NCBI GenBank assembly: GCA_026770705.1
Contig: JANJGN010000189.1
Location: 1 to 64,000, forward strand
Source: Isurus oxyrinchus
Lineage: Eukaryota
Direction of reading: 5' to 3'
DNA: 64,000 nucleotides
The notes under the pieces were generated by a model. That model was not told where the DNA came from. It ran no database searches and was given only the letters and a program-made list of their open reading frames with translations. This document shows positions 54,247 through 56,811 of the stretch, in pieces (within the stretch, counting starts at the first letter, position 1; the number at the start of each line of letters is the position of its first letter). The position numbers and the translations under genes were made by a program.

Positions 54247-54363
54247 TTATAAATTCCCATAAACAGAATCCTCGGCAAAATCACAGTTTGCGTAAAGATC
54301 ATCATCTGTATCAGGATTGACTCCGCGGTTAGATTTCATTTCCAGATCCTTCTCATCTTTCTT
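54247..54363 (-). CDS. Terminal cytoplasmic exon, tail type C (KKDEKDLEMKSNRGVNPDTDDDLYANCDFAEDSVYGNL*)
   Basis: Acceptor ttctattacag, phase 0. Two YxN motifs and a C-terminal SxYxxL. Confidence 0.72.
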   Translation of the reverse strand, partial: KKDEKDLEMKSNRGVNPDTDDDLYANCDFAEDSVYGNL

Positions 54364-54462
54364 CTGTAATAGAAACAGAAATGATCAGAGTGACAATCAG
54401 AGTGATCAGTGTTTAGTATTATTGATCCAAATCGAAAATTCCACCCACAATGGATACATTAA

Positions 54463-54863
54463 TTATTGATACTGAACAGGGTTTGATTATTGATTCTGAA
54501 CGGGGTTTGATTATTGATTCTGAACGGGATTTGATTATTGATTCTGAACGGGGTTTGTTTATTGATACTGATCGGGGTTTGATTATTGATACTGAACGGG
54601 GTTTGCTTATTGATATTGAACGGGGTTTGATTATTGATACTGAATGGGGTTTGATTATTGATTCTGAACGGGGTTTGATTATTGATATTGAACGGGGTTT
54701 GATTATTGATTCTGAACTGGGTTTAATTATTGATACTGAACGGGGTTTGATTATTGATTCTGAACGGGGTGTGATTATTGATTCTGAACGGGGTTTGATT
54801 ATTGATTCTGAACGGGGTTTGATTATTGATACTGATCGGGGTTTGATTATTGATTCTGAACGG
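54463..54863 (+). repeat. 24-bp minisatellite (ttgattattgattctgaacggggt)n
   Basis: About 17 tandem units. Confidence 0.95.
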
Positions 54864-54996
54864 TGTTGGGTGTGAGTTTGGTTGGGTTTGGGAGTGACTG
54901 TATAAAACATTGCAGATACAGGACTGGAGCAGCCATATCAATAACCAGGCTACTGGAGCAGCTGAGAGGCTGGTGATCCTGTGGTGTGTGACTCAC

Positions 54997-55101
54997 CTGA
55001 TTCCTCAAAGCCCAACCACGCTCACAGTTTTCATAAACAGGACCTCGATATTCATCAACACGGTGGTTCGATTTGATTCCTGCTTTCCCCTCGCCTCTCT
55101 T
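54997..55101 (-). CDS. Cytoplasmic exon, tail type C (KRGEGKAGIKSNHRVDEYRGPVYENCERGWALRNQ)
   Basis: 105 nt, phase 0/0, ctattacag acceptor and CAG|gtgagt donor. Paralogous to the exon at 54363. Confidence 0.72.
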
Positions 55102-55171
55102 CTGTAATAGAGATGGAAATGGACAGAGTGACAATCAACATGATGTGTATTCGGTGTTGGGTTTGATTATT

Positions 55172-55446
55172 GGGGAGAGAGTTCCAGATTTCCACTCCCC
55201 TTTGTGTGAAGAAGTGCTTCCTGACATCACCCCTGAACGGCCTGGCTCCAATCTGAAGTTCCGGCCCCCTTGTTCTGGACTCCACCCGACCCCCACCACC
55301 CACCCCCACCCGAGGGAATAGCTTCTCTCTATCGACCCTATCGAGTGTTTAATCAGTTTGAACCCCTCAATTAGATCACTCCTTAATCTTCTGGGCCCGA
55401 GGGAATATAATCGTAGACTGTGTGTAACCTGTCTGCATAATTTAAC
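55172..55446 (-). mobile_element. CR1 fragment, same region as 6481-6800
   Basis: RPFRGDVRKHFFTQRGVEIWNSLP. Confidence 0.85.
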
Positions 55447-55447
55447 C

Positions 55448-55750
55448 AGAAAGATGTTCTGTACAACAGACTTGAGCCTCACACCCAGATCTCAATAATC
55501 AGTAGAAATCTTTCAAAGGCATCAATCATTGGAATCTGTCTTTATAAAGTCACAACATCAACAAGGGACGGTGTTGGTCATGGTAGTGAGTTCCAATCGT
55601 TCCGTTACTTACCCAGGACCTGTCCGACTGCTCGCCTGGGGAGGAACTGCCTACACGCTCTGCTTGGGCTGAATGACCTCTTCCTGTGCTGCTCCCTCTG
55701 TGTATTTAATGAGAAAGGGTTGATGTGTCTCTGTGAGACAAAATCAGGAA
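55448..55750 (-). pseudogene. Orphan Siglec promoter/exon 1 copy (unit F) with no leader or Ig exons
   Basis: Near-identical to about 30057-30350; homology ends at the CR1 fragment. Confidence 0.75.
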
Positions 55751-55989
55751 TTGGGGAACAATTGTGAAAACCCTTGCATTGAAACGTAGGGCCTTAGTGT
55801 TGTGTTGAAAGAAAACAGTTAACCCTTTGTGTCCTGACTCTGTGACGTGATTCCTGTGTAAAGCTGAGCAGTCGTTGAGCGAGTTTCAATTCACTGCTCA
55901 CTCCAGGTGTTGAGGTGGATCTTCTGAAGGAGCAGATGTAGCTCAGCGCTCCTTAAAAATGTGAGAGACTGAACAACGTGTAAGAGGAC

Positions 55990-56405
55990 GAGAGAGAGAA
56001 TGAGAAGGAGAGCATTAGTGGAGATTGGAGAGAGAGTGAATGAGAGAGAGAATGAGAAGGAGAGCATTAGTGGAGATAGGAGAGAGAGTGAATGAGAGAG
56101 AGAATGAGAAATAGAGCGTTAGTGGAGATTGGAGAGAGAGTGAATGATGGAAAGAATGTGAAGGAGTGAATTAGTGGAGATAAGAGAGAGAGTGAATGAG
56201 AGAGAGAATGAGAAGGAGAGCATTAGTGGAGATTGGAGAGAAAGTGAATGAGAGACATAATGAGAAGGAGAGCATTAGTGGAGATTGGAGAGAGAGTGAA
56301 TGAGAGAGAGAATGAGAAGGAGGGCATTAGTGGAGATTGGAGAGAGAGTGAATGAGAGAGAGAATGAGAAGGCCAGCATTAGTGGAGATAAGAGAGAGTG
56401 AATGA
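55990..56405 (+). repeat. 52-bp purine-rich minisatellite (about 8 copies)
   Basis: cattagtggagat recurs every 52 nt. Confidence 0.92.
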
Positions 56406-56714
56406 AACATGGAAAATGGAATGAGATTGCATGCACTAACGAAAGAAAGGTTTTCATTTATATAGCACCTTTCACATCCTCAAGGGGTCACAGGGTATTT
56501 TATGGTCCGGGTCAAAACTGCCAGTTACAGGACTGAGTTGTCAAACAGGGAGTGTAGGATGAGGTGTTCAATAATGATTGAACATCAAAGCTCTTCAGGG
56601 GCTGTGAAGGGTTTTGGGTTGTGAAAGGTGCTATAGAAATGCAAGTTTTTTCTATAAGGAGCGAAGGTTGAAGAAAACATTTTCAAAAACAACCAATTAA
56701 ACCTTCACACTGAC

Positions 56715-56811
56715 TTTCTCACACACTTGAAGATGAAGAATCCACTCAGTCCAACACTCAAACAGATTCCAGCTCCAAGCAATCCTGCTTTCCATTCATT
56801 GGAATCTCGCC
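56715..56811 (-). CDS. Siglec-like TM exon of unit E
   Basis: 97 nt paralog of 21760-21856. Encodes RDSNEWKAGLLGAGICLSVGLSGFFIFKCVRK; gtcagt donor. Confidence 0.8.

Follow-up and report, generated by a model that had tools for sequence, protein, structure and literature searches.

Organization of the tail exons

The DNA analysed here (the window) is the first 64,000 nucleotides of contig JANJGN010000189.1 of Isurus oxyrinchus. Its minus strand carries a transmembrane (TM) exon followed by a bridge exon and two tyrosine-bearing exons, Y1 and Y2, which together encode the type-3 tail of a Siglec-like family:

56811-56715, minus strand: type-3 TM exon, 97 nt, phase 1 to 2, donor GTCAGT
55697-55613, minus strand: bridge exon, 85 nt, phase 2 to 0, bounded by cag and gtaagt, open frame of 28 aa
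55101-54997, minus strand: Y1 exon, 105 nt, phase 0 to 0, PVYENC
54459-54867, no strand assigned: intronic minisatellite of 24-bp repeats in the Y1-Y2 intron, differing in length among copies
54363-54247, minus strand: Y2, terminal coding exon, phase 0, DLYANC and a C-terminal SVYGNL-stop
53122-54246, minus strand: probable 3' UTR, AATAAA at 53473, 53305 and 53127

The initial annotation had described two phase-0 exons with near-identical acceptors downstream of a TM exon ending in phase 2. This was confirmed: both acceptors read ctattacag/AAGA, and PVYENC, DLYANC and the terminal SVYGNL-stop lie where they had been placed. The proposed paralogy of Y1 and Y2, acceptors included, was also borne out by a local DNA alignment score of 146, against 50 on average and 81 at most over 2000 shuffles, and by likeness at the protein level (p=0.003). 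The resemblance is confined to the YxN frame. The end of Y1 aligns with the terminal YGNL of Y2, and Y1 thus probably once had a second site. YxNC occurs three times in the six frames of the 64 kb, twice in Y1 and Y2.

The phase 2-0 bridging exon that had been reported as missing is present at 55697-55613 and is used by RefSeq models; in all 11 copies first examined its frame is open and its ends are AG and GTAAGT. Another candidate at 55923-55839, also of 85 nt and open in 10 of the 11 copies, was rejected because its donor is weaker and one copy has lost both donor and frame; it is also unused in every RefSeq model seen. An alternative phase-0 TM donor farther downstream was unnecessary, since an RNA joint uses the phase-2 donor.

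The full-length tail has 101 aa and three YxN sites, and one RNA contig of run X5 covers Y1, Y2 and, beyond them, about 840 nt of the paralogous 3' region. The hydrophobic core of the TM has no charged residue (no Lys or Arg). Neither hallmark of the DAP12-coupled type, a charged TM residue and a short Tyr-free tail, was found in the type-3 TM and tail.

State of the window copy

The suspicion that this copy is broken proved right for the ectodomain, which has been lost upstream, and wrong for the bridge exon, which is not missing. What is left of the ectodomain is a single feature:

58073-58138, minus strand: remnant of the membrane-proximal C2 exon, its last 66 nt, with the deletion breakpoint at 58138

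Similarity to an intact paralog stops at 58138, and no V or C2 exon was found between this position and the tail of the preceding gene at 67284. The window copy itself does not have the Siglec layout of V, C2, TM and tail. The same C2 remnant is present in 11 of 45 TM-bearing copies; the TM donor is GTAAGT in 39 of the 45 and GTCAGT in six, the window copy among them. Use of the window tail by splicing from the upstream gene would be phase-compatible. The window copy is probably a non-functional relic.

Copies in the genome

A first-look search of the 4.98-Gb genome (5558 contigs) gave 112 candidates for the type-3 TM, 95 for Y1, 144 for Y2, 331 for the type-A TM, 406 for tail A and 811 for the bridge/leader element, all unverified as copy numbers. 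Forty candidates of each search were scored (96-100% identity), and these matches lie on about 14 contigs. Some of them may be haplotypes that the assembly left uncollapsed, since several blocks close to the starts of contigs are 100% identical. The candidates put the type-3 tail at roughly 100 copies (95-144 per exon) and point to several hundred TM exons of Siglec-like genes, spread over about 14 contigs.

The window copy and 50 further loci (10 and 40) were examined, chosen as best matches and hence biased towards intact copies. A TM exon was present in 45 of these 51 and all four exons in 40, of which 32 are intact, six have a dead Y1 acceptor and two have stops; the others comprise one with a deleted bridge, four without Y1 and Y2 in the stretch fetched and six orphan Y2 exons. 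The motifs hardly vary: YENC was found in 41/41, YANC in 45/47 and SVYGNL in 47/47. Eight of ten copies fetched with 16 kb of upstream DNA have V and C2 exons, one of them with stops in two C2 exons.

At a distance of about 4 kb from the orphan Y2 exons (L081, L082, L087-L090 and C189:139792-139905) there is a leader in the opposite orientation, which has a signal-peptide exon in all cases and a V exon in most; this looks like one inversion that was afterwards amplified. In one clade (L041/L045, the copies C52d and C52f, L054, L055, L072 and L085) the Y1 acceptor has changed to GG, which would force a two-site isoform, and the two copies of this clade with enough upstream DNA have a V domain lacking the essential Arg. 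Blocks 99-100% identical to the first 22 kb of the window, often near contig starts, occur on C189, C646, C724, C121, C838, C1184, C323 and C71 and represent recent segmental duplication or uncollapsed haplotypes.

The bridge exon and its leader twin

The bridge exon is a 96-99% twin of the 5' leader exon of the family. Besides the bridge itself, the 264 kb surrounding the window contain ten occurrences of its 85 nt. Nine of these ten twins are followed, at a distance of 517-535 nt, by a signal-peptide start, and each of the nine signal-peptide exons found in the 264 kb has a leader twin ahead of it. The following lie in the window:

55698-55754, minus strand: upstream flank of the bridge, common to the leader element, without the ACTTCC(T/C)C motif
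52073-52157, minus strand: leader twin of the next gene, 83/85 nt as in the bridge, signal-peptide ATG 535 nt downstream at 51622
38836-38920, minus strand: leader twin, 82/85, no signal-peptide exon found behind it
33389-33473, minus strand: leader twin, 84/85, preceding the signal-peptide exon at 32986-32905
30221-30305, minus strand: leader twin, 84/85, preceding the signal-peptide ATG at 29771 of a type-A gene

ACTTCC(T/C)C, which we take to be an ETS/PU.1-like motif, precedes the exon by about 45 nt in 23 of 25 leader-type copies and is absent from all 46 copies classified as bridge, one of which (L076:8203) is really of leader type. At the position 14 nt before the AG the RNA contigs have a base typical of leader copies, which hints weakly at transcripts starting from the leader element. 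A Cetorhinus model has an exon of leader/bridge type spliced to the signal-peptide exon.

In three copies of one clade (L061, L074 and L075) a signal-peptide exon comes immediately after TM and bridge, an arrangement that fits recombination through the approximately 300 bp shared by bridge and leader; the shared stretch offers a possible recombination point. The tree of bridge and leader copies has three label changes, poorly supported and with no outgroup, and cannot therefore order the two roles. The bridge is coding across three shark orders, indicating that it is old. An exon that is coding in one class of genes and a 5' leader in all classes is a concrete route to gene fusion and turnover.

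Other genes of the cluster

10254-21856, minus strand: type-A TM exon and four tandem bridge-and-tail units of about 3 kb, partner tails of the inhibitory type

Three of the four type-A units at 10254-21139 encode FLYANP and TEYAQI and the last one LFYANI and TEYTQI; the units are possible alternative last exons. Similar doubled tail units occur at C189:117-122 kb and 207-210 kb. The type-A genes at C189:67284-83696 and 183195-199411 (minus strand) have about 10-11 tandem near-identical C2 exons, and ectodomain length across the family ranges from 1 to 11 C2 repeats. Broken gene fragments at 31716-36614 and 42516-45382 comprise truncated C2 exons, a V exon interrupted by a stop near position 36580, and a V-C2 gene that ends in a partial C2 exon and for which no TM was found. 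A duplicated element of about 750 bp (61022-61727 and 62301-63100, 78% identity between copies) occurs only upstream of some Siglec-like units. Positions 1-6885 of the window are a low-complexity C/T-rich repeat array that gives rise to long spurious open frames.

The ectodomain and the tails that share it

Pfam domains V-set, C2-set_2 and Ig_CD22 were found on protein P0005, and the best PDB matches of the ectodomain were MAG (E=7e-41), Siglec-8 (6e-35) and CD33 (3e-27). The cysteines of the V and first C2 domains align with those of MAG in the Siglec pattern, with presumed disulfides. The essential Arg of the F strand, which aligns with the Arg of sialoadhesin and MAG, is present in all 16 proximal V1 exons of type-3 genes, or in 21/21 when the type-A genes are included. 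Judged by these sequence features, the type-3 genes are Siglec-like and encode putative sialic-acid receptors. A second V class without the essential Arg also bears the type-3 tail, in 2 of 10 copies and in a white shark gene.

In the tandem-V genes (C189:130423-130797, C189:151533-151907 and L033) the essential Arg of the distal V domain is replaced by Thr, and the C-C' region of this domain is long and basic. Variation among the V exons at 28471-28836, 36252-36614 and 45017-45382 and their paralogs is concentrated in the C-C' region, as in the CD33-related Siglecs.

The proposal that one ectodomain family carries different tails was upheld, since the same V domains bear type-3 and ITIM/ITSM tails. 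The V-exon tree comprised 25 sequences, of which 16 belong to type-3 genes and five to type-A genes, with four distal V exons left ungrouped. Tail type did not cluster on this tree: the label needed four changes, compared to a mean of 4.7 after shuffling, and 139 of 500 shuffles were as low. Three type-A V exons are closest to the V exon of a type-3 gene, with 97.8-98.7% identity; these are near-identical ectodomains on different tails, as in paired receptor families. At least four signalling outputs had been proposed; those seen were three tyrosine-tail types together with tyrosine-free splice forms, and scanning of five stretches of the 264 kb revealed no further TM exon downstream of C2 or V exons. 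YxN is not exclusive to the type-3 tail, since tails A and B carry YAN.

Conservation of the tail in sharks and a similar module in rays

A protein search with Y2 yielded two white shark clusters among 7 candidates, with four isoforms (XP_041037222-225) that read TM-bridge-(Y1)-Y2, as expected if the peptides terminate Siglec proteins. All four have the 28-aa segment between the TM and the YxN exons, and RefSeq isoform X2 skips Y1. Galeomorph sharks conserve the tail: RefSeq models of seven shark species from three orders use TM-bridge-Y1-Y2 (54-94% identity). Protein matches put the window close to lamniform sharks, and its tail is 94% identical to that of the white shark (Carcharodon), 87% to that of Cetorhinus and 54-66% to the models of Rhincodon, Stegostoma, Mustelus and Chiloscyllium. 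When the tail of the white shark was used as query, 17 proteins were obtained, all of them from sharks, among 93 candidates, and a database-wide search added more. Type-3 proteins are in RefSeq under automatic names (MAG-like, Siglec-13, CD33-like), which do not show orthology. These results support the view that the Siglec-like family has a third tail type, which arose through exon duplication and in other species is joined to the TM exon by splicing, and we are nearly certain that it is a real spliced tail.

A similar terminal module with two YxN sites was found in four skate and ray proteins (Rhinoraja, Hemitrygon, Hypanus and Mobula), picked for that very pattern from 107 TM-bearing matches. 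Frog Siglec-like tails (P0135, P0141 and P0096) have YMNC or YTNC beside ITIM/ITSM motifs, and YxNC may thus be ancient within this group of receptors.

Tyrosine motifs and the case for Grb2-family docking

Motifs were counted in 12 shark proteins from Carcharodon, Cetorhinus, Rhincodon, Stegostoma, Mustelus and two Chiloscyllium species; duplicate isoforms (P0002-4 and P0006) and models that lack Y2 (P0010, P0011, P0014, P0017 and P0019) were omitted. The terminal Tyr, always three residues from the end, has Asn at +2 in 12/12 proteins. Asn+2 is present at the middle site in 10/12 and at the first site in 6/7, the seventh having YESC. The YxN reading given to the tail in the initial annotation fits this pattern. 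The same annotation had read SVYGNL as a relaxed ITIM; the window sequence does match, but the match is conserved in only 3/12 proteins. Given Asn+2 in all 12 and the relaxed ITIM in three, the terminal site reads as Grb2-type.

Our preferred reading is that the window holds the TM and tail half of a Siglec-like gene whose three Tyr sites are docking sites for Grb2-family adaptors and not ITIMs (probability about 0.65). Docking of Grb2-family proteins by the tail, taken by itself and as predicted from the motifs, is likely.

The tail could instead be a damping module. Its YxN sites would then, on the model of CD22 and SIT, sequester Grb2 or bring in Grb2-SHIP/PMCA, or its last Tyr would be a weak ITIM for SHP-1/2. 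SVYGNL fits the relaxed consensus [I/V/L/S]xYxx[L/V] (PMC7226832), and at the protein level a weak local likeness links Y2 to the part of tail A that holds the ITIM (p=0.001). At the DNA level, on the other hand, Y2 has no similarity to tails A and B (scores of 55 against shuffle means of 49-50), and among the shark proteins the residue at -2 is A or P in 8/12 and that at +3 is K or T in two. Calcium signals are attenuated by CD22-Grb2 (PMC5302901) and SIT is proposed to dampen signalling through Grb2 binding (PMC3177817), which favours damping; against this, ITIM/ITSM members are already about three times more numerous in the family. We consider a damping module rather unlikely.

Splice forms in RNA

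Contigs from four runs, presumed to be RNA and with spliced joints in agreement, were aligned to paralog L043; the joints described are the 15 listed out of 100. Among those listed, the C2-to-TM joint was found in runs X1 and X6 and the Y1-to-Y2 joint in runs X2, X5 and X6. A TM-to-Y1 joint that skips the bridge was found in runs X1 and X2, which are one sample; in run X2 the shorter arm of this joint covers all 97 nt of the TM. The 15 joints listed out of 100 include none from TM to bridge or from bridge to Y1, so that inclusion of the bridge rests on RefSeq predictions and on cross-species conservation.

Splicing would set the number of sites at three when all exons are used, two when Y1 is skipped and none when the bridge is skipped. 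The two-site form is represented by the RefSeq isoform X2 and would be expected of the 6 of 40 copies with a dead Y1 acceptor; the form without sites corresponds to the RNA joint.

The skipping joint raises the alternative that the main product in these sharks is a tyrosine-free decoy, the bridge being usually skipped and the YxN frame belonging to a minor or decaying isoform. Skipping shifts the frame and gives a 32-aa Tyr-free tail in 38 of 40 copies; its stop lies in Y1, 8 nt before the last junction, and a stop so close to the last junction should escape nonsense-mediated decay. The catshark RefSeq model P0019 ends like a direct TM-to-Y2 splice, and Y2 polymorphism looks neutral. Within this genome none of the tail exons gave a significant signal of purifying selection (pN/pS 0.70 for the bridge, 0.76 for Y1 and 1.09 for Y2; p 0.3-0.65) among young copies picked as best matches, a point that also counts against our preferred reading. 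Against a decoy stands the retention of the YxN frame at 54-66% identity, with fixed Tyr motifs, across three shark orders, as do runs X5 and X6, for which no skip joint was among those listed; an X5 contig has 72 other letters before Y1. We regard a decoy as the main product as improbable.

Discussion

Conservation of Cys+3 at the inner sites equals or exceeds that of Asn+2 (YKSC in two proteins, YESC in one), and a partner other than Grb2 is therefore possible there. The YxxC motif has been linked to STAT3. It is very improbable, however, that the conserved inner unit is YxxC, serving another SH2 protein or lipid modification, with YxN incidental: Cys+3 is present in 11/12 proteins at the middle site, including two without the Asn, and YMNC/YTNC recurs in the frog tails next to ITIM/ITSM, but the terminal site has Asn in 12/12 and no Cys, and a literature search on YXXC with SH2 and STAT3 found nothing.

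If the three sites dock Grb2-family adaptors, as we prefer, ligand clustering would lead Src/Syk-type kinases to phosphorylate the tail, and phosphorylated YENC, YANC and YGNL would then bind the adaptors. The Grb2 site of CD22 is YENV, and SIT carries a YGNL motif. Three sites could cross-link Grb2-SOS, as trivalent LAT does, and alternative splicing would change the number of sites between 3, 2 and 0. The outcome would be a DAP12-independent counterpart to the inhibitory members of the family. Since Grb2 binding by CD22 and SIT has been linked to damping, we give a net activating rather than damping effect about even odds. A broader proposal is tentative and, as a whole, doubtful: sharks would have a DAP12-free activating arm of a Siglec system of several hundred genes, in which a sialic-acid receptor carries its own LAT-like trivalent Grb2 scaffold with a valence of 3, 2 or 0 set by splicing, and a single 300-bp element would act both as the frame-setting coding exon and as the promoter-side 5' leader and would drive gene fusions in the cluster.

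To our knowledge, known Siglecs signal via ITIM/ITSM tails or DAP12, and Grb2 sites are single extras. A tail with YxN sites only, conserved in sharks and with a terminal module apparently common to rays, would be a third Siglec signalling mode. No paper on shark Siglec tails or their expansion was found in the literature searched, which covers few subscription journals. A keyword look-up in PMC13358205 and PMC7226832 gave no mention of sharks, fish are stated in the latter to have no ITIM-bearing CD33-related Siglecs, and a look-up in PMC8455134 gave a single passing mention of Siglecs.

MAG (Siglec-4) and the CD33-related Siglecs are the best PDB matches for the shark ectodomain; their tails differ, and the shark genes are a lineage-specific expansion. 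CD22 (Siglec-2) likewise joins a Siglec ectodomain to a Grb2-recruiting tyrosine, a single one beside three ITIMs (PMC3342095). Recruitment is predicted for the shark tail, which in contrast has three YxN sites, no conserved ITIM/ITSM and about 100 gene copies. The paired Siglecs (Siglec-5/14 and -11/16) also have near-identical V domains on different signalling ends, but in these pairs the activating member relies on DAP12 and on a charged residue in its TM (PMC6288428), whereas the shark type-3 proteins have an uncharged TM core and carry the motifs on their own tail. In the layout of motifs the shark tail resembles LAT, NTAL and SIT, which have several YxN motifs on a short tail: three YXNX sites of LAT bind Grb2, and their number governs aggregation and Grb2-SOS clustering (PMC3291652). 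These are adaptors without a ligand-binding ectodomain, and the likeness of the shark tail to them is one of motif layout, with no homology claimed.
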